Shown here in pieces: positions 6,762-40,025 of a DNA stretch of 64,000 nt. The position numbers were made by a program, and so were the translations under genes. The DNA comes from Thermodesulfobacteriota bacterium (lineage in GTDB: Bacteria > DASVDK01): NCBI GenBank assembly GCA_036381125.1, contig DASVDK010000177.1:6104-70103 (forward strand). The letters are read 5' to 3'. Under the pieces are notes generated by a model that worked only from the letters and a program-made list of their open reading frames with translations, was not told where the DNA came from and made no database searches. Each line of letters opens with the position of its first letter. Position 1 is the stretch's first letter.

Positions 6762-7385
6762 ATGGACGCCACCATGGCCCGCCGCCTGCGCGAGCTGCGG
6801 CACGCGAGCGGTCTGACGCTTGCCGAGGTCGCCCGGGCCACACGCCTGTCCCCGTCGTTCGTGAGCATGGTCGAGACGGGAAAGACCGACATCTCGCTCG
6901 CGCGGCTCCTCTCGCTGGTGACCGCGTACGGGGTGACCATCCACGACCTGTTCGCCGACAGCGCGACCCCTGCCGGGCGCCGGGAGGCGCGCGTGATCCG
7001 CCGCTCCGGCTACGTGTCGGTGCCGCTCGCCGACCGGGGCGTGCGGCTCCTCCTCCTGGCGCCGGCAGCCGAGCGCCGGCTCGAGCCGGTGTTGATCGTG
7101 ATCGACCCGGGGGCGGGGCTCGGCGCGCCGCTCAGGCACGAGGGGGAGGAGTTCGTGTACGTAATCGAGGGGGAGGTGACGCTGACGGTCGGACGCCGCC
7201 GCCACCGGCTCGGGCGGGGCGAGACGGCCTACTACTCGTCCACGCTGCCCCACCGGTTCGCCAACCCGGGGCGGCGGCGGGCGGTGCTCCTCGGGGGCGC
7301 CACCTACTCGCCGCTGCACGTGCACGGCATCGGCCGGGGCGTGGGTGCGCCCGCTACGCCACCGCGAGACGGACGCCGGCGGTGA
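6762..7385 (+). CDS. XRE-family HTH plus cupin domain transcriptional regulator
   Basis: HTH LRELRHASGLTLAEVARATRLSPSFVSMVETGK followed by a cupin (…EFVYVIEGEVTLTVG…). It is divergent from livK. Start chosen at MDATM because an SD-like ccggagggga precedes it. Confidence 0.75.
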   Translation: MDATMARRLRELRHASGLTLAEVARATRLSPSFVSMVETGKTDISLARLLSLVTAYGVTIHDLFADSATPAGRREARVIRRSGYVSVPLADRGVRLLLLAPAAERRLEPVLIVIDPGAGLGAPLRHEGEEFVYVIEGEVTLTVGRRRHRLGRGETAYYSSTLPHRFANPGRRRAVLLGGATYSPLHVHGIGRGVGAPATPPRDGRRR

Positions 7386-8067
7386 GGCCGGGGTCGAGCG
7401 GGCCGCGCGGCGCGCCCGCTCGCGCCGCGAGCGTGACGGCGAGCGGCCCGGCCGCGCCGACCGCGGCCACGTACTCGAGCCGGTGCGGGCCGAGCGTCAC
7501 CTCGAGGCCCGACCGCGTCGGGTCGAGGCCCGCGGCCGCGGCGACGACGGCGGCGATGCGGGCGGGGTCCCGGGCGCCGATGGTGACCGCGACGAGCCCG
7601 GTGACGCCGTTGGCGTGCGGGGCGGCGGCCGGCACGCGCGCCTCGCGGGGCGTGTCGTCCTCGATCAGGAAGGGCGCGACGCCGAGATCGGCCGGCGGCG
7701 GGAAGGCGAGCCGCCACCGCAGCGTGTAGCCGTCCGGCCTGACCCGCGTCCAGGGGGCCGGGTCGGTGTAGCGCAGGCCCGCGCGGTCGAAGGCGGCCAG
7801 GTCCGCCGCGAAGTCGGTCGTCCGCAGACAGACGTCCACGAGCCCGCCGCCCCGCTGGCCGGCGGGCCACCAGCGGTGCTCGGGGGCCGGCTCGAAGAAG
7901 GCGACGAGCTCGAGGTAGGAGCCGTCCTCGAAGGGGACGAGCGCGTTGTTCGTGCCGCGCGCATGGCGTCCGCCGGGCACGACGGTGAAGCCGAGCCGCG
8001 CGTACCGGTCCTCGGCCTCCGCGAGGTCGCCGACGAGGACCACGACGTGATCGATCCCGGCGAGCAT
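7354..8067 (-). CDS. VOC/glyoxalase-family protein
   Basis: N-terminus MLAGIDHVVVLVGDLAEAEDRYARLGFTV is typical of glyoxalase/bleomycin-resistance folds. Its ATG overlaps the stop of the upstream GntR gene (ATGA). Confidence 0.7.
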   Translation of the reverse strand: MLAGIDHVVVLVGDLAEAEDRYARLGFTVVPGGRHARGTNNALVPFEDGSYLELVAFFEPAPEHRWWPAGQRGGGLVDVCLRTTDFAADLAAFDRAGLRYTDPAPWTRVRPDGYTLRWRLAFPPPADLGVAPFLIEDDTPREARVPAAAPHANGVTGLVAVTIGARDPARIAAVVAAAAGLDPTRSGLEVTLGPHRLEYVAAVGAAGPLAVTLAARAGAPRGPLDPGLTAGVRLAVA

Positions 8068-8786
8068 CAGCGCGGAGGCGGCAGGGCGAGGACCATGCGG
8101 TGACGGTCGGCCCTGGAAAAGACCTGGCTGAAGAACACCGGCCGACCGTCGGCGTCGAGGTACCGGCGCTCGGCCTCGAGGACCGGCGCGCCGACCTCGA
8201 TGCCGAGCGCGGGCGCGAAGGCCGGGTCGGCAAGCCCCGCGGAGATCGTCTGGTGCACCGACGCGACCGCCACGCCGAAGCGCCGCGACAGGAGGGCGAC
8301 GATCCGCGTGCGCGCCAGTTCGGCCTGCGCGTCGAGCACCTTCAGGCCGAGGGCGTGAGGCAGGTAGGCGACGACGAAGGCGATGGGCGCCCGGGCGAGA
8401 TACGCGACGCGGTCGATCGCGACGACCGGGGCTTCCGGCGCGAGCGCGAGCCGCTCGGCGATGCGCGGCGTCGCGCGCACGGTCCGATGGTCGACCACGC
8501 GCAGGGCGTCGCCCTCGCCGCGCATCAACTCGACGAGCCCGCCCGGCGGCGTCTCGATGCGGTCCCTCGGCGCGCCGATGTAGAACGTCCCGCGCCCCTG
8601 CTCGCGCCGGATCGTCCCGTCACGCTCGAGCACGCGCAGCGCCTGCTGGATGGTGATGCGGCTGACGTCGAACTCCGCGCAGAGGTCCGTCTCGGACGGC
8701 AGCCGGTCGCCGGGGGTGTACTCGCGCTCGAGCCGCGCCTCGATGATGCGCTTGATCACATAGAACTTGGCGACGAGGGGGCGCAC
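8067..8786 (-). CDS. GntR-family (HutC/UTRA-type) transcriptional regulator
   Basis: wHTH PSETDLCAEFDVSRITIQQALRVLERDGTIRREQGRGTFY plus a C-terminal UTRA-like domain. Confidence 0.8.
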   Translation of the reverse strand: MRPLVAKFYVIKRIIEARLEREYTPGDRLPSETDLCAEFDVSRITIQQALRVLERDGTIRREQGRGTFYIGAPRDRIETPPGGLVELMRGEGDALRVVDHRTVRATPRIAERLALAPEAPVVAIDRVAYLARAPIAFVVAYLPHALGLKVLDAQAELARTRIVALLSRRFGVAVASVHQTISAGLADPAFAPALGIEVGAPVLEAERRYLDADGRPVFFSQVFSRADRHRMVLALPPPR

Positions 8787-31470: not shown

Positions 31471-33975
31471 CTACGCGATCCCCCAGATCCCCCTGGCGTA
31501 CTCGAGGATCGTCCGGTCGCTCGAGAAGAAGCCGGCGCGCGCGATGTTGACGAGGGCGGAGCGGGCCCAGCCGTGCCGGTCGGCGTAGCGCTGCACGGCC
31601 TGCGACTGCGCCGCCGCGTAGGCCGGCAGGTCGGCCAGGACGAAGTAGCGGTCGCCGTGGACCATGAGCGCGTCGTGAATGGGGGCGAAGAGCGAGGGGT
31701 CGCCGCCGTTCAGCCAGCGGCTCCGGAGCGCCTCCACCGCCTGGGCGACCTCGGGATGGCGGCTCGCCACCTCGGCCGGACGGTAGCTGCCGGCCGACCG
31801 CATCGCGGCCACCTCCTCGGTCCTGAGGCCGAAGATGAAGATGTGCTCGGGGCCCACGCGCTCGAGGATCTCGACGTTCGCGCCGTCGAGCGTGCCGATC
31901 GTCAGCGCCCCGTTCATCTGGAACTTCATGTTCCCGGTGCCGGAGGCCTCGTGGCCGGCGGTGGAGATCTGCTCGGACAGGTCGGCGGCCGGAATGATCT
32001 TCTCGGCGAGCGACACGCGGTAGTTCGGGACGAACACGACCGAGAGCCGGCCGCGGCAGTCGGGGTCGGCGTTGATCACCTCGCCGAGCCGCGTGAGGAG
32101 CCGGATGACGAGCTTGGCCATGTGGTAGCCCGGCGCGGCCTTCGCCGCGAACACGAACGTCTGCGGCTGCACGTAGTCGCGCGGCCTGGCCTTGATGCGC
32201 TGGTAGAGCACGAGGATGTGCAGCGCGTTGAGGAGCTGTCGCTTGTACTCGTGGAGCCGCTTCACCTGGACGTCGAAGAGCGAGTCGGGCTCGACGGCGA
32301 CCCTGCACTCCTGCCGGATGATCGCGGCGAGCTGCTCCTTCTTGCGCCGCTTGACCGCGAGGAACTCGCTCCGGGTGTCGAAGTCGTCGGCGTAGGGCTC
32401 GAGGCGCGCGAGCTGCTCGAGGTCGGTCACCCAGCGGTCGCCGATGCGGCTCGTGATGAGCGCGGACAGCTCGGGGTTCGCCGCGAGGAGCCACCGGCGC
32501 GGCGTCACGCCGTTGGTCTTGTTGCTGAAGCGCTCGGGCCAGAGCTCCGCGAAGTCGGGGACGAGCTGGGTCGCGACGAGGCGCGAGTGGAGCGCCGACA
32601 CGCCGTTCACCGCGTGGCTCCCCGCGATGGCGAGGTTGGCCATGCGGGCGCGCTTCTCGTTCCCCTCCTCGATGAGCGACATGCGGCGCAGCCTCGCCGG
32701 GTCGTTCGGCCAGCGGCGCCGCACCTCGGCGAGGAGCCACTCGTTGATGTCGTAGATGATCTGGAGGTGGCGGGGGAGGAAGCGCGAGACCATCTCGATC
32801 GGCCAGCTCTCGAGCGCCTCGGGCATGAGCGTGTGGTTCGTGTAGCCGAACGTCCGCGTCGTGAGCTGCCAGGCCTCGTCCCAGTCGAGCCCTTCCTCGT
32901 CGAGGAGGACGCGCATCAGCTCCGGGATCGCCAGCGCGGGGTGGGTGTCGTTCAACTGGATCGCCACCTTGTCGGCGAACTCGAGCAGGTACGGGTCGCC
33001 GGGCCGCTCGCGCTTGTAGCGGCGGACGATGTCCTGGACGGCGCACGCGACGAAGAAGTACTCCTGCTTGAGGCGCAGCTCCTGGCCGCTGCGCACGGAG
33101 TCGGACGGGTAGAGGATCTTCGAGATCGTCTCGGAGAGCGCCTTGTCCTCGACGGCGCCCACGTAGTCGCCCCGGTTGAACTTGACGAGGTCGAGCTCGT
33201 TCGAGGCCTTGGCGGCCCAGAGCCGCAGGCGGTTGACGGTCTTGCCGCCGTAGCCGACGATCGGCATGTCGTACGGGACGCCGAGGATCGTCTCGCCCCC
33301 CACCCATCGGGGGCGGTAGCGGCCCCGGGCGTCGACGTCGTCCTCGAGCCGCCCGAAGAACCTGACGGTGACCGTGTCGTCGGGGCGCACGACCTCCCAC
33401 GGGTTGCCGTACCGCAGCCAGTGGTCCGGGTCCTCCACCTGGAACCCGTCGACGATCCGCTGCTCGAACATCCCGTACTCGTACCGGAGGCCGTAGCCGT
33501 GCCCCGGCAGCCCGAGCGTGGCGAGCGAGTCGAGGAAGCAGGCGGCGAGGCGGCCGAGGCCTCCGTTGCCGAGCCCCGCGTCCAGCTCCTCCTCCAGCAC
33601 GTCGTCGAGGTCGACGCCGAGGTCGGCGAGGATCTCGCGCGCCGTGTCGCGGATGCCGAGGTTGATGAGGTTGTTGCCGAGCAGGCGGCCGACCAGGAAC
33701 TCCATCGACAGGTAGTAGACCTGCTTGCGATCGGCGGCCCGGGTCTCCTGCTCGGTGCGCAGCATCCGCTCGACGAGGCGGTCGCGCACGGTGAGCGAGA
33801 GGCTCACGAGCCGGTCGAGGTTGGTCGACTCGCTCCACCGCTTGCCGAGCGCGCACTTGAGGTAGCGGATGAACGAGCGCTCGATCGCCGCACGGTCGGT
33901 GCCGAGCGAGGCCTCCTGCCAGATGGCCGGTTCGCTGGCGAACGGCGACGAGGTACGGGTGACGGCGCGGCTCAT
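31471..33975 (-). CDS. glgP: glycogen/alpha-glucan phosphorylase
   Basis: 834 aa with the PLP-binding region …EASGTGNMKFQMNGALTIGTLDGANVEI…. Phosphorylase-like along its whole length. Confidence 0.95.
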   Translation of the reverse strand: MSRAVTRTSSPFASEPAIWQEASLGTDRAAIERSFIRYLKCALGKRWSESTNLDRLVSLSLTVRDRLVERMLRTEQETRAADRKQVYYLSMEFLVGRLLGNNLINLGIRDTAREILADLGVDLDDVLEEELDAGLGNGGLGRLAACFLDSLATLGLPGHGYGLRYEYGMFEQRIVDGFQVEDPDHWLRYGNPWEVVRPDDTVTVRFFGRLEDDVDARGRYRPRWVGGETILGVPYDMPIVGYGGKTVNRLRLWAAKASNELDLVKFNRGDYVGAVEDKALSETISKILYPSDSVRSGQELRLKQEYFFVACAVQDIVRRYKRERPGDPYLLEFADKVAIQLNDTHPALAIPELMRVLLDEEGLDWDEAWQLTTRTFGYTNHTLMPEALESWPIEMVSRFLPRHLQIIYDINEWLLAEVRRRWPNDPARLRRMSLIEEGNEKRARMANLAIAGSHAVNGVSALHSRLVATQLVPDFAELWPERFSNKTNGVTPRRWLLAANPELSALITSRIGDRWVTDLEQLARLEPYADDFDTRSEFLAVKRRKKEQLAAIIRQECRVAVEPDSLFDVQVKRLHEYKRQLLNALHILVLYQRIKARPRDYVQPQTFVFAAKAAPGYHMAKLVIRLLTRLGEVINADPDCRGRLSVVFVPNYRVSLAEKIIPAADLSEQISTAGHEASGTGNMKFQMNGALTIGTLDGANVEILERVGPEHIFIFGLRTEEVAAMRSAGSYRPAEVASRHPEVAQAVEALRSRWLNGGDPSLFAPIHDALMVHGDRYFVLADLPAYAAAQSQAVQRYADRHGWARSALVNIARAGFFSSDRTILEYARGIWGIA

Positions 33976-33984
33976 CGGGCGTAT

Positions 33985-34002
33985 CCTCCGGACGGCCGGA
34001 GG
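33985..34002 (-). promoter_or_regulatory. SD-sequestering hairpin CCUCCGG-N4-CCGGAGG at the glgP ribosome binding site
   Basis: A 7-bp GC-rich inverted repeat. On the mRNA its 3' arm contains the GGAGG SD located 9 nt from the AUG, and its 5' arm is the anti-SD mimic CCUCC. Confidence 0.4.
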
Positions 34003-34097
34003 GTAGTGAGAGGGGGGGCCGCTGTCAACCAGGCCGACAGCCGGGCGCGGGAAAGTGCTTTCCGAACGCCTGCGAAGTGTAATAAAGTCGGCAGTCG

Positions 34098-35009
34098 ATG
34101 GCCCGGCCGATCAAGCTGTCGGTTGTCATCCCGACCTACAACCGGGGCTGGCGGATCGTCCAGTGCCTCGACGCGCTGGCCCGGCAGGCGGGCGGCTGGG
34201 ACGAGGCCGAGGTCATCGTCGTCGACGACGGGTCGACGGACGATACGCTCGATCGGCTGCGGAGCTACCCGCCGCCCCCCTTCCGCCTTCGGGTGCTCAC
34301 GAAGCCCAACGGAGGGTGCGGGAGCGCCCGGAACCTCGGGCACGCGAAGGCGCGAGGCGAGTGGGTGGCCTGCCTGGACGACGACTGCGTCGTCCCGCCC
34401 GACTGGCTCCGGACGGCGCTGGCGGCCATTGCCGCGAACCCCGATGCGGCCGCCGTCGGCGGTCTCGTCGAACCGATCTCGGCCGACGGTCTGGTGAGCC
34501 GGTACACCCGCGCGCGCCGCGTCCTGGCCGGTCCGTCGATCATCGGGGATCGGGTGGTCGCGGTCGTCACCGCCAACGCGCTCTTCCGCAAGGCGTCCCT
34601 CGACGCCATCGGCGGGTTCGACGAGCGCTTCCGATTCCCGGGGGGCGAGGACGTGGACGTGTGCCAGCGCCTCCTGGCCGCCGGGGGCCGCCTGGTCGCC
34701 GACACGCGCCTGGTCGTGCGTCACCACCACCGGCAGGGGCTGCGTCCGCTGCTCGCCCAGGTCTACTGGTACGGACACGGGTCGGGGCTGCTCAACTGCA
34801 AGGCGCGGCGCCGGCCGCTGCGGCTGCACGCGCCGGTCAAGGCCCTCTCCGCCGCGGGTTTTCTCCTGATGACGCCCCTCTACGCCGCCCGGTACGCGGC
34901 CAGTCGGGCCGATCGCCTCGAGGGCGCCGCCTTCGGCTGCATCGAGGGCTTCAGGCGAGCCGCCTACGCGCTCGGCAAGGCCCGCGGGCTCTGGCGGGGC
35001 TTCGCCTGA
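34098..35009 (+). CDS. family 2 glycosyltransferase
   Basis: LSVVIPTYNR…VIVVDDGSTDDT…ACLDDD (DxD) defines a GT-A fold. Confidence 0.85.
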   Translation: MARPIKLSVVIPTYNRGWRIVQCLDALARQAGGWDEAEVIVVDDGSTDDTLDRLRSYPPPPFRLRVLTKPNGGCGSARNLGHAKARGEWVACLDDDCVVPPDWLRTALAAIAANPDAAAVGGLVEPISADGLVSRYTRARRVLAGPSIIGDRVVAVVTANALFRKASLDAIGGFDERFRFPGGEDVDVCQRLLAAGGRLVADTRLVVRHHHRQGLRPLLAQVYWYGHGSGLLNCKARRRPLRLHAPVKALSAAGFLLMTPLYAARYAASRADRLEGAAFGCIEGFRRAAYALGKARGLWRGFA

Positions 35010-35047
35010 GCGCGAAGGCCCACGCGGCGCCCGCTATACTTCGGGCC

Positions 35048-35710
35048 ATGCGACCCCCGTCCGTCCGTCCGGCCGTGGATGACCCGGCGTTCTGGGAGGC
35101 CCTCTACGCGAGCGGCCGCGACGGCTGGGACCTCGGCGGCCCGACGCCGATCCTCGAGCGGGTGATCGGCGAGGGGGCGCTTCCCCCCGGCGCCCGCGTG
35201 GCCGTGCCGGGGTGCGGCCGCGGGTACGACGCTCGCCTGCTCGCCGACCTGGGATACCCGACATGGGGCTTCGACTTCGCCCCCAGCGCGGTGGCCGAGG
35301 CGCGGCGGCTCGCCGGCGCCGCGTTCGCGGCCTCGGGGCCAGGCCCCGCGCCGCTCGTCTTCGAGTCGCGCGACGTCTTCACCCTGCCCGGCGCCTACGA
35401 CGGGGCCTTCGACGCGGTCTGGGAGTACACATGCTTCCCGGCCATCGACCCGGCGCGCCGCGCCGAGTACGTCGAGGTACTGCGGCGGATCCTCGCGCCG
35501 GGCGGTCGCCTGCTCGCCCTCTTCTTCCCGGTGGAGGAGGCCCCGCGCAGCGAGGGGCCGCCCTTCGCCTCGACGCGGGGCGAGGTCCGCGCGCTGCTCG
35601 AACGGGCGTTCCGGATCGACGCGGCGGAGGATCCGCCCGACTCGATCCCGCTGCGGCGGGGCAAGGAGTGGCTCGTACGGGCGACGCGGCTGGACCAGGA
35701 CCCATGGTGA
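35048..35710 (+). CDS. SAM-dependent methyltransferase, thiopurine S-methyltransferase (TPMT)-like
   Basis: FWEALYASGRDGWDLGGPTPIL…RVAVPGCGRGYDARLLADLGY…VWEYTCFPAI is the TPMT-family pattern. ATG at 35048. Confidence 0.7.
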   Translation: MRPPSVRPAVDDPAFWEALYASGRDGWDLGGPTPILERVIGEGALPPGARVAVPGCGRGYDARLLADLGYPTWGFDFAPSAVAEARRLAGAAFAASGPGPAPLVFESRDVFTLPGAYDGAFDAVWEYTCFPAIDPARRAEYVEVLRRILAPGGRLLALFFPVEEAPRSEGPPFASTRGEVRALLERAFRIDAAEDPPDSIPLRRGKEWLVRATRLDQDPW

Positions 35711-35815
35711 GCGTGGCCATCGGGCAACCTTGGGGCGCGAATGGCGAGACTTCCAGAATGGATGCCAGACGGATGCTGGGCGAGCGCGCCCGACCTGTCG
35801 GCGAGGCGGCAGCCC

Positions 35816-36710
35816 GATGAGCCGTTCGGAAGCGCCCCCGCGCGCGGTCGCCGACCTGGCCGATCGGGTCTCGACCGAGGGGGGCCAGGTCGTCGGGGTA
35901 TACCGCGAGCCGGTGGGCGGCCACTGGCACGTCTTCGCCCTGATCCCGGTCGACCGGCTCGAGCCGACGCCGTTCCAGCGCGATCGCTCGAAGCCGCACG
36001 TCGAGCGCCTGCGGACCGTGATCGCCCGGCTCGACCGCTTCGTGGACCCCCTCGTGGCCGTCCCGGCGCCGGAGCCGGGGCGCTACTGGGTGCCGAACGG
36101 CAGCCACCGGCTCGCGGCGCTCGAGAAGCTCAGGGCGCGGCGGGCGCCGGTGATCCTCGTGCCCGAGGTCGACACCGCCTACGAGATCCTCGCCCTCAAC
36201 ACCGAGAAGGCCCACACGCTCAAGGAGAAGTCGCTCGAGGTCGTCCGGATGCTCCGGGGCCTGGCCGAGGCGCGCCCGCGCGCCACCGAGGCGTCGCTGG
36301 CCGCGGTCTTCGAGGCGCCCCACTTCGCCACGCTCGGCCTTCTCTACGAGGCGAAGCCGCGCTTCGCCGGCGGCGCGTTCGCCCCCATCCTCCGGCGGGT
36401 GGACCGGTTCCTCGACCTCACGCTCCCGAAGGCGCTCGCCGAGCGGGAGCGCCGGGCAGACCTCGTCTCCACCGCGGACGACCACCTCACCGCGCTCGTG
36501 GCGAAGCTCAGGCGCCGAGGCGTCACGCATCCGTACGTCAAGCCCTATCTCCTCGCCCGCTGCTCGCCGCTCACGCGCGCTCGCAAGCGGCTCCCCTCGT
36601 TCGACCAGACCTTCGAGCGGCTGGCCGAGGCGCTCGCGGCCTTCGACGTGGCCTCGGTGCGCGCGGACGCCATCGCGCGCGCGGCCATGGCCCCTCCGGC
36701 CGCCGAGTAG
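35816..36710 (+). CDS. ParB/sulfiredoxin-fold (ParB N-terminal nuclease-like) domain protein
   Basis: IPVDRLEPTPFQRDRSKPHVERLRTVIARLDRF…VPNGSHRLAALEKL resembles ParB-N box motifs, followed by a helical C-terminal region. Confidence 0.6.
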
Positions 36711-36749
36711 GCCGAGCATCCGCCCGCGCTGCCGGGTACAATCGCCTCC

Positions 36750-37532
36750 ATGCCGACCGACCTCGACCTTGCACGCGCGCTCACCACCGCTCGCCGGGCC
36801 GTCTCCGCCGCCGCCGAGGCGAGCCTCAAGTACTTCCGGCGCGGCGTCGCCGTGGAGACCAAGCCGGACCGCACGCCGGTCACCGCGGCCGACCGGGAGG
36901 CCGAGGCCGCCATCGTGGCCGTCATTCGCGACGCCTTCCCCGACCACGGGATCCTCGGCGAGGAGAGCGGGGTGCACGCGGCCGGCTCGGCCTGCCGCTG
37001 GATCGTCGATCCCCTCGACGGCACCCGCGGCTTCAGCCGGGGCGGCATCTTCTGGGGGCCGCTCGTGGCGCTCGAGCAGCGCGGCGAGATCGTCGCCGGC
37101 GCCATGGCGCTGCCGGTGCTCGGCGAGACCTACTGGGCCGCGAAGGGGCAGGGCGCCTTCCGCAACGGGGAGCGGCTGCGCGTCTCGAGCATCGCCGACT
37201 GGCGCGAGGCGACGGTGAGCTTCGGCGAGCTCGGCCGCCTGCTGGAGCCCCCGTACCAGGGCGGCGTCGGCGAGCTGGCCCGAACGGCCGCCTCGGCGCG
37301 CTGCTACGGCGACCTGGCCGGAGCCGTCCTCGTCCTGACCGGTCGGGCCGAGGCCTGGATCGAGTGCGGGGTCAAGGTCTGGGACGTGGCCCCCGTGAAG
37401 ATCCTGGTCGAGGAGGCGGGGGGGCGCTTCACGGACATGGCCGGGGCGGGCTCGGTCGAGAGCGGCCACGCCGTCGCCACCAACGGCCGCGTCCACGACC
37501 ACGTGCTGCGGACCCTGCGCGCCGGGGCCTAG
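36750..37532 (+). CDS. inositol monophosphatase family protein (IMPase/CysQ/HisN-like)
   Basis: EESG…WIVDPLDGTRGF…WDVAP metal-binding motifs. Confidence 0.8.
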   Translation: MPTDLDLARALTTARRAVSAAAEASLKYFRRGVAVETKPDRTPVTAADREAEAAIVAVIRDAFPDHGILGEESGVHAAGSACRWIVDPLDGTRGFSRGGIFWGPLVALEQRGEIVAGAMALPVLGETYWAAKGQGAFRNGERLRVSSIADWREATVSFGELGRLLEPPYQGGVGELARTAASARCYGDLAGAVLVLTGRAEAWIECGVKVWDVAPVKILVEEAGGRFTDMAGAGSVESGHAVATNGRVHDHVLRTLRAGA

Positions 37533-39001
37533 AACCTGAGCGTGACGCCGGCGTTCAGGCGGCCCTCCTCCGGATACTCGCGGCCGTCGTAGGTCGTCCG
37601 GTCGACCGCCACCGCGCCCTCGACGTCCACGGTGAGCCAGGGGACGCCGACGGCCAGCCCTGCGGTCAGGACCGGGCTGCTGCCCGACTCGGCCAGGTTC
37701 GTGTAGGCGCCGCCGCGCAACCGGAACCACTGGAAGGGCGCGAGCTCCACGCCGCCGCCGAGGATCCGGCTCCGCACCCCCGCGAGGGCCGTCTCGTTCT
37801 CCGTCAGGTCGATGTCCGCCGCGAGCGAAAGCCACCGGAGCGGCGCCCAGGAGACGCCGGCCCGCACCTGGGGGTCGACCTCGAGGTCGGGGCCGATCGG
37901 CGCCTCGAACCTCGGGCCGTTGAGGTGCTTGCCGACCACGCCGACGCCGATCGTCCGGTTCGGCCACCAGACCGCTCCCAGGTCGAGGCCGAACGCCGTG
38001 CTGTCGCGGTAGGACTCCCGGAGCTCGTCGAGCGCCTCCCCCGCGTCGGTGCCGAAGACCTCGATCTCCGAGACGTACACCCGACCCCGCATGAGCTTCA
38101 CCGACGCGCCGAGCCCGAGGCTGCCCAGGCGCCCGAGGCGGATCGGGTGGCCGTACGACAGCGGCACCTCGACGAGGCCGATGCCGCGGTTGCGCAGGAC
38201 CGAGGCGTTGGCGTCGATCGGGCCTCCGGAGCCGAGCGCCTCGGCAAGGGCGACGAGCGCGTCGGTCGCCTCGGCCGGCGTGACGCCGGCCTCGTTGGAG
38301 CCGTCGAGCTCGGCGTCGAACGCGCTCACCACATCGGCCGGGTTCGCGACGCCGGCCGCGGCGAGCGCGGCCTCGATCTCGGCGCGTTGGGCCGGCGAGA
38401 AGAAGGCGTTCGAGGGCGGCGCGCCGACGCCGAGCGCGCTCATGGCGGCGGCGTCGATGGGCGCGCCGCCCGCCTCCGGCAGGACGTTGGTCGTGTCGAT
38501 GTCGGGCAGCAGCGCCGCCTCGCCCGTCCCGTAGACGCCGAAGCCGAGGCGCCGGACGTGCAGCCCCGCGAGGGCGTTGGCGCGGACCGACAGCGCCCCC
38601 TCGCTCCGATCGATCTTCCGAAGCAGCGCGAGCATCTGCACGGCGTCGGCTGCGACGCCCCGGTCGGTCGCCGGCGATCCGGTGAAGTCGGCGATGGCCT
38701 CGACGTCGATGCGCGAGAGCCGGTCGAGGTCGTCGACGATGTCGTCGTGCGCGGCGGCGCCGACGCCCGCGCCGAGGCGAGCGGCGACCCGGCGGTTGAA
38801 CGCCAGGGCGGCGGGGTTCCAGTAGGGTGCGAGCCCGTCCGGCGGCCGGGCGACGCCCGCGCCGCCCATGCCGAGCGTGCCGAGGGGCTGGAACTCGACG
38901 GCGGCAGCCGGGGCGGCGGCAGCGAGGCCGAGGGCGGCGGCGAGAGCCGCCGCAGGGGCGAGCGGCCACCGGCCCGCCCATCGGTCCGGGGTTCGGTGCA
39001 T
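37529..39001 (-). CDS. outer membrane beta-barrel protein (TraF_2-like family)
   Basis: Signal peptide MHRTPDRWAGRWPLAPAAALAAALGLAAAAPAAA, alternating amphipathic strands and a C-terminal …GVTLRF ending in Phe. Confidence 0.55.
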   Translation of the reverse strand: MHRTPDRWAGRWPLAPAAALAAALGLAAAAPAAAVEFQPLGTLGMGGAGVARPPDGLAPYWNPAALAFNRRVAARLGAGVGAAAHDDIVDDLDRLSRIDVEAIADFTGSPATDRGVAADAVQMLALLRKIDRSEGALSVRANALAGLHVRRLGFGVYGTGEAALLPDIDTTNVLPEAGGAPIDAAAMSALGVGAPPSNAFFSPAQRAEIEAALAAAGVANPADVVSAFDAELDGSNEAGVTPAEATDALVALAEALGSGGPIDANASVLRNRGIGLVEVPLSYGHPIRLGRLGSLGLGASVKLMRGRVYVSEIEVFGTDAGEALDELRESYRDSTAFGLDLGAVWWPNRTIGVGVVGKHLNGPRFEAPIGPDLEVDPQVRAGVSWAPLRWLSLAADIDLTENETALAGVRSRILGGGVELAPFQWFRLRGGAYTNLAESGSSPVLTAGLAVGVPWLTVDVEGAVAVDRTTYDGREYPEEGRLNAGVTLRF

Positions 39002-39143
39002 GGGTCCCTCCCGCGAAGCGGCGGGACCTTACGCCAGGCGGGCCGGCGATGCAAGCGGAACCTGGTCTCGATCGTGAGGGACAGGCTCGGGCCGGAGTCG
39101 CACGCCGCGAGCCGGTGGACGGCGGTCGTTCGGCAGGGCGGCG

Positions 39144-40025
39144 TCAGCGTCCCGGCGCCCGCGCCTCCCCGCGAAGGGGCCCCCGCGCCTCGTCCTCCTC
39201 GCGGGCCGACCAGATGAGGAAGACGGTGGTGAGGGCGAAGAGCCAGAAGAACCCGCCCGCCACCCACATGATGAGCGCCCCGAGCTGCTGGTCGTAGAGG
39301 GCCGTCATGTCCGTGACCCGCGGCGCCTCGGCGTACCAGGGATAGAGCGGCTCGGTGGCGAGGGCGATGATCGCGCCCACGAGGGAGCCGGGCACGATCT
39401 GGAAGAAGAGATAGAGCATGGCGACCGGCGGCGCGAGCCTCGGCCAGCCGGGGACGCCGAGGGGGCCGCTGACGGGCCACCACATGATCACCGCGGTCAC
39501 CAGGTAGGCGAGGTGAAGCGCGATGTGGAAGTCGTGGTTCCGCATCTGCAGCTCGTACACGGGCACCACGTGGGAGACGGCGAAGAGGACGTTGAAGATC
39601 AGGAAGGCCGGCACCGGCCGCGTCACCCGGCGGCCGAGGGGGCCGATCACCCGCATGCGCGCGAGGGGCCGGAACGCCCAGGCCGGCATTCCGGCGAGGA
39701 GGAGCGGCGCCACGACCAGCGTCACGAGGAGGTGCTGCACCATGTGGACGCTGAAGAGGCAACAGTCGCCGTACTCGTGGATCGGACCGCTGAGCGCACC
39801 GAACATGACGGCGACCCCGGCCACGAAGGCCGCCTGCCGCGCGCGGTGAACCGGCGCCGACCCGGCGATCCGCGCGCGTCCCGGTCCGACGAGCCAGAAG
39901 TACCCGGCGAGAAGGGCGAGGCACCCGATGACGATGCTCGGGTGCCCGAGCCAGACGGTGAGCCCGTCGGGGACCGTGTAGGTCCCCGACGACGGGTCGA
40001 GGACGAGCGGATGGGAGAGGAGCAC
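39144..40025 (-). CDS. ctaG: cytochrome c oxidase assembly factor CtaG (Caa3_CtaG family) membrane protein
   Basis: Polytopic protein last in the cox operon. HMVQHLL…YELQMRNHDFHIALHLAYL motifs. Confidence 0.65.
   Translation of the reverse strand: MLLSHPLVLDPSSGTYTVPDGLTVWLGHPSIVIGCLALLAGYFWLVGPGRARIAGSAPVHRARQAAFVAGVAVMFGALSGPIHEYGDCCLFSVHMVQHLLVTLVVAPLLLAGMPAWAFRPLARMRVIGPLGRRVTRPVPAFLIFNVLFAVSHVVPVYELQMRNHDFHIALHLAYLVTAVIMWWPVSGPLGVPGWPRLAPPVAMLYLFFQIVPGSLVGAIIALATEPLYPWYAEAPRVTDMTALYDQQLGALIMWVAGGFFWLFALTTVFLIWSAREEDEARGPLRGEARAPGR

Follow-up and report, generated by a model that had tools for sequence, protein, structure and literature searches.

A highly conserved chromosomal family of orphan ParB/Srx-fold proteins, candidate nucleotide-binding switches, and the variable glgP-cox interval that encodes one of its members

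Orphan proteins with the ParB fold are widespread and bind CTP, ATP or GTP via the arginine of a GxxR motif (Kaljevic et al. 2025, PMC12704722). According to the same survey, bacterial 'single-domain' orphan ParBs of at least 300 amino acids (aa) probably carry unannotated domains, the nucleotide choice of orphan ParBs is reliably predicted by neither sequence nor AlphaFold3, and DndB-like proteins bind ATP or GTP (PMC12704722). Orphan ParB/Srx-fold proteins are thus already recognized as a class by specialists and, in this respect, the protein described here, which we denote ParBL, comes as no surprise. ParBL is encoded in a stretch of 64,000 nucleotides of contig DASVDK010000177.1 (hereafter, the window; G+C content of ~73%) and is identical to HEX7126175.1, annotated as 'ParB N-terminal domain-containing protein', from a metagenome-assembled genome (MAG) labelled Thermodesulfobacteriota. 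Its gene belongs to a tightly spaced run of four open reading frames (ORFs), all on the + strand, which, according to the ORF list and the Pfam and NCBIfam scans, encode a GT2-family glycosyltransferase, a TPMT-family methyltransferase, ParBL and an IMPase-family phosphatase; the intergenic gaps are 38, 106 and 39 bp, and the divergent glgP gene lies 122 bp upstream of the GT2 gene. An initial annotation of the window had correctly described these four co-directional, closely spaced ORFs and had suggested that they might form a modification or salvage module. On balance, we favor a different interpretation, namely that the interval is a backbone with variable junctions rather than a four-gene module and that ParBL is a nucleotide-binding, ParA-independent switch or regulator.

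The ParBL of the window has no Pfam match at E-values up to 1, including PF02195 (ParB_N), which is matched weakly by 10 of 24 ParBL relatives (best E-value 1.5e-4); the family is evidently too divergent for this model, and its assignment is carried by the predicted fold. Among the NCBIfam models, the top match is SerK (NF053625; E-value 6.6e-5, 22.2 bits against a cut-off of 380), and TIGR00180 is matched with an E-value of 0.0095 (15.7 bits against a cut-off of 58.45). A phmmer search of the PDB initiated with the single sequence retrieved SerK (E-values 9e-5 to 7e-4) and SbnI (6e-3). When the family profile was compared with the PDB, the best match was Helicobacter pylori ParB (8e-5), with an alignment that spans Boxes I-III, followed by SerK (7.5e-4), SbnI (3e-3), Noc (1e-2) and sulfiredoxin (~0.1). 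The AlphaFold model obtained from the family alignment (predicted local distance difference test score 88, predicted template modelling score 0.73) shows the three-dimensional ParB/Srx fold in the N-terminal domain, and a Foldseek search with this model placed Noc and ParB on top (E-values 3e-6 to 4e-5), in alignments of ~190-240 columns that reach past the Srx core. Taken together, the sequence matches and the AlphaFold and Foldseek results make the assignment to the ParB/Srx fold solid, with the family approximately equidistant from the CTP-clamp and kinase branches.

ParBL can be divided into an alpha-beta-beta N-terminal extension (residues 1-45), the ParB/Srx core (46-135) and a basic, Arg-rich helical domain (136-297); the isoelectric point is 10.1 for the whole protein and 10.3 for the C-terminal domain. 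Across 162 full-length members, three motifs are nearly invariant, namely the Box I-like TP[YF]QRD.S..H, in which Q54 and R55 are each conserved in 158 sequences, the Box III-like ALNTEKAH..EK..E, with E130 conserved in 160, and Box II, which has the form PNG[NSH]HR (G95 and R98, each in 160 of the 162). G95 and R98 align with the G and the second R of GERR in H. pylori ParB, so that the GxxR phosphate-binding signature is present. Position 96, which corresponds to the catalytic Cys of sulfiredoxin, is occupied by N in 108, S in 16 and H in 15 of the 162 members, and none of the core positions carries a conserved Cys. The ParA-binding motif [LFI]G[KR]G[LFI] is found in none of the 162 sequences, and ParBL has no Pfam match to a helix-turn-helix (HTH) or C-terminal dimerization domain.

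These results bear on several features that the initial annotation had ascribed to this gene. The peptide motifs that it quoted, DRLEPTPFQRDR and NGSHRLAAL, are present in the sequence, and the protein is a genuine standalone member of the ParB/Srx fold, as indicated by the AlphaFold and Foldseek analyses and the GxxR motif. The ParB-like gene placed at 35816..36710 is also real, except that it starts one nucleotide later, with the ATG at 35817, in agreement with the N-termini of 23 homologs. Its isolation from parA and from partition sites holds as well: neither the Walker A motif KGGxGK[ST], in whichever frame, nor a parS site within 3 mismatches was detected in the 64 kb. We also considered, and rejected, the possibility that ParBL is a fragment of a partition protein given that, with 297 aa, it is full length like its homologs (~300 aa), has neither parA nor parS nearby and lacks the ParA-binding motif. 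Structure prediction, which had been proposed as a means to separate ParB, sulfiredoxin and DndB-like folds, ranked ParB and Noc first. A sulfiredoxin-like enzyme is rejected because the catalytic Cys is missing, and there is no Pfam, NCBIfam or PADLOC match to the DndB family.

Like the orphan ParB-CTPase-fold proteins Noc, KorB, VirB and PadC (PMC12704722), ParBL combines the ParB/Srx N-terminal fold with a GxxR motif containing a near-invariant Arg, a Box I-like Q-R and a Box III-like E/K, is encoded away from parA, lacks the ParA-binding motif and, with a length of ~300 aa, has a recognizable domain at the N-terminus only, a situation that is common according to the survey (PMC12704722). 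Unlike these proteins, it has NG[NSH]HR in place of GERRxR in Box II, no recognizable HTH (no PF17762 match) or dimerization domain and an additional alpha-beta-beta extension at the N-terminus; furthermore, its family is confined to chromosomes, in contrast to the many orphan ParBs that reside on mobile elements, and its conservation across phyla far exceeds that of canonical ParB. The similarity to SerK (TK0378 of T. kodakarensis and PF0380 of P. furiosus) and to SbnI of Staphylococcus consists in an Srx-fold N-terminal domain followed by a helical C-terminal domain, a G-x-H-R motif and a standalone, not partition-related occurrence; however, the C-terminal domains do not superpose, and only ~110 residues can be aligned. 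Compared with sulfiredoxin, which has the motif GGCHR, ParBL is three times larger and contains extra domains. In DndB and other DGQHR-domain proteins, and in the DUF262 ParB-like NTPases, a Q-R motif is followed by a G-x-H-R motif, as in ParBL. Nevertheless, ParBL shows no Pfam, NCBIfam or PADLOC match to these families, carries Asn in place of Asp ahead of the Gly in the motif and, unlike DndB, is not located near dnd or restriction genes.

Clustered at 90% identity, the ParBL family forms more than 4800 groups, and at 50% identity it forms 1260; its members occur in at least 595 species-representative genomes from at least 8 phyla, mostly of uncultured soil species. They are abundant in Methylomirabilota, Acidobacteriota, Binatia, Gemmatimonadota and further soil phyla, and the range also takes in Armatimonadota, Nitrospira, Bacillota and additional groups. 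Identity to the protein encoded in the window is ~60% across phyla, and mean column identity is 76%. No homologs were detected by tblastn in 72,556 plasmids and 50,697 phages, so the family is strictly chromosomal, and an origin from mobile elements was discarded on the same grounds. PADLOC yielded no match for ParBL, and accordingly a role as a component of a known defense system was rejected. The long representatives (345-748 aa) show no consistent additional Pfam domain; the PmbA and HAD pieces that are present in some of them look like chimeric gene calls and were dismissed as hints to function. The family falls into groups of ~60% and ~48% identity that are both of mixed taxonomy, and a single Rokubacteria MAG, RIFCSPLOWO2_02_FULL_73_56, encodes two paralogs with 62% and 53% identity to the protein of the window (loci L026 and L055); these observations suggest paralogy and/or horizontal transfer. 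A ParBL with 61% identity on a 6 kb contig in an archaeal Nitrosotalea sp. MAG (L011) probably reflects contamination of the bin and not a genuine archaeal occurrence of the family.

The window is collinear with six loci from close relatives, L001, L086, L088, L089, L156 and L157. In the closest of these to the window by ParBL identity, L001 (91%), the gene order is glgP(-), TPMT(+), vapBC(-), ParBL(+), IMPase(+), TraF_2(-) and ctaG, without a GT2 gene. In L088 (76%), the TPMT and ParBL genes overlap by 4 bp and the IMPase gene lies 6 bp further, an arrangement shared by L089 (76-77%); in L086 (74%), a gap of 420 bp follows the TPMT gene, and an opposite-strand MFS gene is located between ParBL and IMPase. 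The remaining two loci, L156 and L157, which were located via the IMPase (84% identical), are collinear with the window from the Pyr_redox, DedA and SulP genes through glgP to cox, and yet lack ParBL: the TPMT gene is followed by the IMPase gene after a gap of 54 bp. Consistently, in blastn comparisons, window positions 35689-36726, which encompass ParBL, have no counterpart in L156 or L157, and positions 34030-35080, which encompass GT2, have none in L001, L156, L086 or L088. L156 represents the second-closest relative of the window genome (GlgP 87% and IMPase 84% identical) and is nested among ParBL-positive genomes, which makes loss of ParBL more parsimonious than repeated gain. From these sequence comparisons, ParBL was probably lost in L156, and GT2 was probably gained in the lineage of the window. 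The TPMT gene, in contrast, precedes the position of ParBL in every relative of the lineage, including the ParBL-negative ones.

The other differences among these loci are similarly discrete. The vapBC insertion (PIN and RHH proteins) was found only in L001 and the MFS gene only in L086, and the glgP-cox interval thus behaves as a small insertion hotspot. Comparison of the window with L001 shows clean reciprocal indels, with window 34030-35080 corresponding to L001 6214-6236 (GT2) and L001 6846-7485 corresponding to window 35694-35704 (vapBC), and the MFS gene of L086 is an insertion at a third backbone junction. The interval without ParBL in L156 spans positions 7299-8786. The ParBL-positive contig of L001 and the ParBL-negative contig of L157 belong to the same assembly, GCA_040960765.1, which implies either that two related populations were binned together or that the region is duplicated.

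Outside the lineage, gene neighborhoods were analyzed in 80 species genomes by tblastn within 6 kb of ParBL (89 loci for the GT2 count) and in a second, independent sample of 65 loci from metagenomes, in which 39 flanks on either side were informative; in the metagenome scan, the best full-length match was 64% identical, and no closer relatives of the window lineage were recovered. A GT2 homolog is present near ParBL in none of the 89 loci and in none of the 65 metagenome loci, and the IMPase gene is near ParBL in none of the 80 genomes; GT2, IMPase and TPMT are all missing from the informative metagenome flanks. A TPMT homolog is located upstream of ParBL, on the same strand, in 8 of the 80 genomes, all of them Methylomirabilota, with the two genes abutting or overlapping in four cases and lying 0.8-5 kb apart in the other four. 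De novo clustering of the neighbors in 84 loci revealed no partner gene in more than 19% of the loci, the most common being an SDR at +1 (16 loci) and a LivM-like permease at -1 (14 loci). Across the loci, the neighbors of ParBL are metabolic or housekeeping genes, and there is no ParA among the neighbors in the related loci examined. The non-conservation that the initial annotation had named as grounds for abandoning the module is therefore what was found for GT2 and IMPase, whereas the TPMT-ParBL adjacency recurs, as a minority pattern, in some Methylomirabilota.

With regard to the recurrent neighbors themselves, the SDR-family oxidoreductase gene is the immediate downstream neighbor of ParBL in 10 loci and lies within 3 genes of it in 16 of the 84 (e.g., L044 and L030), with a median gap of 4 bp in the six-frame ORF clustering, and the gene for the LivM-like branched-chain amino-acid ABC permease directly precedes ParBL in 12 loci. 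Both are typical of the Methylomirabilota-type loci; in Binatia-type loci, ParBL is flanked by genes for a YceI-like protein and RNase E/G.

Immediately upstream of the IMPase gene, the hexamer TA[CG]AAT is retained 7-9 nt before the ATG in L001, L086, L089, L156 and L157, in a spacer that has otherwise diverged. In the 64 kb window, TANAAT occurs only four times on both strands (36737-36742, and 25774, 15833 and 1061, each on the - strand); all four hexamers resemble -10 boxes, and one of them, TGCTAGAAT, includes an extended -10 TG. The conservation of TA[CG]AAT together with the rarity of TANAAT points to an independent, leaderless-type candidate promoter of the IMPase gene, and the location of the hexamer only 7 nt from the ATG in the window suggests that leaderless transcription is used in the source organism. 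A TATACT hexamer precedes the TPMT ATG by 7 nt in the window and by 10 nt in L086 and L088 and is a candidate promoter of a leaderless or short-leader TPMT transcript. No -10 box was found near the start of ParBL, which is preceded instead by a Shine-Dalgarno (SD)-like sequence; this GAGG, along with the overlap with the TPMT gene in L088, L089 and L031, suggests that ParBL and TPMT may share a transcript in loci where they are neighbors. A sigma-70 scan yielded no promoter-like sites, and a terminator scan gave two overlapping matches inside the TPMT gene; at 73% GC, these scans are uninformative.

Under the interpretation that we favor, the backbone would consist of glgP(-), TPMT(+), HisN-like IMPase(+), TraF_2(-) and ctaG-cox(-), the junctions of which would accept variable single-gene cassettes: GT2 would be a genome-specific insertion of ~1 kb between glgP and TPMT, and vapBC and the MFS gene further lineage-specific insertions. 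ParBL would be old in the lineage and yet dispensable, as indicated by its clean absence from two of the collinear loci. The IMPase gene would be transcribed from its own -10 box, and ParBL possibly together with the TPMT gene. The protein itself is predicted to bind a nucleoside tri- or diphosphate in the pocket of the Srx fold, lined by G95/R98, Q54-R55-D56 and E130/K131, and nucleotide binding might control the contact of the basic C-terminal half with nucleic acid or another polyanionic partner. ParBL would then be a switch or regulator in the style of Noc, KorB or VirB, as opposed to a partition protein, a sulfiredoxin or a SerK-type serine kinase. Several observations weigh against this interpretation. 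The segment that takes the place of the ParB HTH (consensus TEEDYAFQFEAPHFITLGLLYE) is hydrophobic, without the polar and basic residues that serve for recognition in ParB and Noc, the C-terminal domain has no structural neighbor, and ~60% identity across phyla is a level seen more typically in enzymes than in regulators that bind specific DNA sequences. In addition, the overlap or close apposition of the TPMT and ParBL genes in L088, L089, L031, L042, L044 and L047 might reflect a functional pair.

The most obvious enzymatic alternative is that ParBL is an ATP- or ADP-dependent small-molecule kinase similar to SerK and SbnI, perhaps paired metabolically with the HisN-like phosphatase. The single-sequence PDB matches and the top NCBIfam model described above are those expected of such a kinase, the G-x-H-R motif of ParBL resembles the DG[HV]HR motif of SerK and SbnI, and the very high conservation, with many invariant residues in both domains, is enzyme-like; moreover, the 6 bp that separate ParBL and IMPase in L088 would fit a metabolic pairing, for which there is a precedent in that HisN-like IMPases can act instead as phosphoserine phosphatases (10.1101/2024.10.14.618325). 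However, the SerK model is matched at 22 bits against its cut-off of 380, the family profile fits canonical ParB slightly better than SerK or SbnI, and Noc and ParB top the Foldseek ranking. The catalytic residues appear to be missing as well. The kinase activity of SbnI needs Glu20 and Asp58, as stated in the passage of PMC9641203 that cites Verstraete 2018, and Glu30 of SerK is the residue mutated in PDB entries 5x0e and 5x0j; the place of SbnI Glu20 and SerK Glu30 is taken in ParBL by R55 or V62, in alignments that are weak, and that of SbnI Asp58 by N94 (N in 155 of the 162 members and D in 4). In the same weak alignments, the invariant D56 of ParBL is one residue away from the SbnI Glu. 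Furthermore, the IMPase gene is not adjacent to ParBL outside the lineage and has its own candidate promoter box, and a kinase and a phosphatase acting on one product would constitute a futile cycle. A SerK/SbnI-like kinase is thus rather unlikely; nevertheless, given the hydrophobic segment in place of the HTH, the C-terminal domain without a structural neighbor and the enzyme-like conservation, this alternative retains appreciable weight despite the missing catalytic residues. A slightly better, although still minor, chance can be given to the tentative possibility that ParBL represents a nucleotide-dependent enzyme of a new kind, or a switch that acts on a conserved cellular target, distinct from the CTP clamp, the serine kinase, sulfiredoxin and DndB, and perhaps acting with a TPMT-type methyltransferase in some lineages.

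A more specific version of the latter connection is a two-gene unit in which ParBL is the nucleotide-binding partner or regulator of the TPMT-family methyltransferase, with GT2 and IMPase as bystanders. In the lineage, the TPMT gene is upstream of ParBL on the same strand in 5 of the 5 ParBL-positive members, and the same arrangement in the 8 Methylomirabilota genomes involves ParBL proteins that are only 56-60% identical, with spacings in L031, L042, L044 and L047 that range from a 7-bp overlap to a gap of ~51 bp. The SD-like sequence and the lack of a -10 box near the ParBL start are compatible with such a unit, and ParB-fold proteins fused to S-adenosylmethionine (SAM)-dependent methyltransferases exist and bind ATP (PMC12704722), but the methyltransferases in these known fusions are predicted to act on DNA or RNA and are not of the TPMT type (PMC12704722), and no TPMT-ParBL fusion was detected among the representatives examined. 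Given also that TPMT persists without ParBL in L156 and L157, that ParBL occurs without TPMT in ~90% of the loci (72 of the 80 genomes and 39 of the 39 informative metagenome loci), that opposite-strand vapBC separates the two genes in L001 and that the distance is 4-5 kb in three Methylomirabilota loci, we consider this pair unlikely. Still less probable is that ParBL belongs to the accessory genes that move horizontally as cassettes, such as defense-related or selfish ones, and occupies a small variable hotspot. The presence-absence polymorphism of ParBL within an otherwise collinear block, the insertion of vapBC, MFS and GT2 genes at the same junctions and the recurrence of PD-(D/E)XK and HNH genes among the ParBL neighbors could be explained in this way, and so could the mixed affinities of the locus, which comes from a Thermodesulfobacteriota-labelled MAG but encodes an IMPase that is most similar to those of Myxococcota and a ParBL with the closest relatives outside the lineage in Methylomirabilota and Armatimonadota. 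Arguing against a cassette of this kind are the empty PADLOC, plasmid and phage searches, the stable synteny with SDR and LivM genes within Methylomirabilota and a conservation that is unlike that of fast-evolving defense genes, and no integrase, transposase or flanking repeats were seen. The initial suggestion of a four-gene modification or salvage module tied to glycogen catabolism is hardly credible in the light of these comparisons. It was based on the co-directional arrangement and short gaps of genes divergent from glgP, whereas the neighborhood analysis shows GT2 to be unique to this genome, as a 1-kb indel with clean borders in the comparison with the closest relative, and the IMPase adjacency to be limited to the lineage. 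ParBL is missing in two relatives where TPMT and IMPase adjoin, opposite-strand vapBC or MFS genes break the run in others, the IMPase gene has a separate conserved candidate -10 box, and HisN-type housekeeping IMPases occur elsewhere in unrelated contexts. The GT2-methyltransferase-ParB-IMPase arrangement is a genome-specific juxtaposition and, having failed the comparison with relatives, does not warrant further consideration as a new pathway.

In contrast to this arrangement, the ParBL family is well delimited, very conserved and chromosomal, and its public annotation is only generic. Given that the fold binds CTP, ATP or GTP and has been repeatedly co-opted, the atypical NG[NSH]HR Box II and the unique C-terminal domain make the family a reasonable target for nucleotide-binding screens.

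Coordinates of the features in and around the run of four genes, with the evidence for each (positions are those of the window)
Feature	Coordinates	Strand	Evidence or remark
glgP, glycogen/maltodextrin phosphorylase	31471..33975	-	PF00343, 1069 bits
GT2-family glycosyltransferase	34098..35009	+	PF00535, E-value 2e-35, 122.5 bits (cut-off 23.3)
TATACT, -10-like box (candidate)	35035..35040	+	7 nt before the TPMT ATG; read from sequence
TPMT-family SAM-dependent methyltransferase	35048..35710	+	PF05724, E-value 1e-29, 103.8 bits (cut-off 26)
SD-like GAGG	35803-35806	+	10 nt upstream of the ParBL start
ParBL, ParB/Srx-fold orphan protein (297 aa)	35817..36710	+	Fold and motifs
QRD motif of ParBL	35976-35984
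NGSHR motif of ParBL (GxxR P-motif)	36096-36110
ALNTEKAH motif of ParBL	36192-36215
TACAAT, -10 box (candidate)	36737..36742	+	7 nt before the IMPase ATG
IMPase-family phosphatase, HisN-like	36750..37532	+	PF00459, E-value 3.5e-47
TraF_2/PorV-like outer-membrane beta-barrel protein (490 aa)	37529..39001	-	PF13729, E-value 2e-26

The remaining genes of the interval can be assigned with varying precision. The glgP gene, which is collinear in L001, L086, L088 and L156, is a divergent backbone neighbor outside any module. The GT2 protein does not attain the equivalog level of any NCBIfam model, the best being MftF (154 against a cut-off of 280). The initial annotation had placed ParBL between a small-molecule-type methyltransferase and an inositol monophosphatase/CysQ-like phosphatase; both families stand, and only the CysQ label gives way, in view of the scores and the JGI names, to HisN-like. 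The TPMT-family protein is a backbone gene product of the small-molecule thiol/halide/chalcogen type, although it falls below the cut-offs of the Tpm (thiopurine/selenium/tellurium) equivalogs (TIGR03840, 52.5 against 223.2; NF009732, 48.1 against 213). For the IMPase, the NCBIfam equivalog scores are 227.6 for HisN (TIGR02067; cut-off 275.15), 110 for SuhB and 94.9 for CysQ, and homologs with 64-69% identity are present in Anaeromyxobacter and Polyangium under the JGI/UniRef name histidinol-phosphatase; the nearest named homologs are Myxococcota 'histidinol-phosphatase / IMPase family' proteins, and in Anaeromyxobacter paludicola the gene is located in an unrelated context. This backbone gene therefore probably encodes a HisN-like histidinol-phosphatase. 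Its stop codon overlaps by 4 bp with the convergent TraF_2 gene, which closes the co-directional run; beyond it lie ctaG and the genes for the caa3 oxidase.

Very long ORFs (974-1200 aa) at 35379-38981 (-), 35741-39217 (+) and 31573-34497 (+) overlap these genes and were discarded as high-GC artifacts. The TPMT-family protein also matches PADLOC mad2, of the methylation-associated defense system (E-value 4.6e-20, model positions 274-449 of 492), which probably reflects generic similarity of the shared SAM-methyltransferase domain. The TraF_2 protein contains a signal peptide and a PorV/PorQ-like N-terminal signature; its gene is missing in L086 and L089 and is otherwise kept beside the ctaG-caa3 oxidase genes in the lineage.

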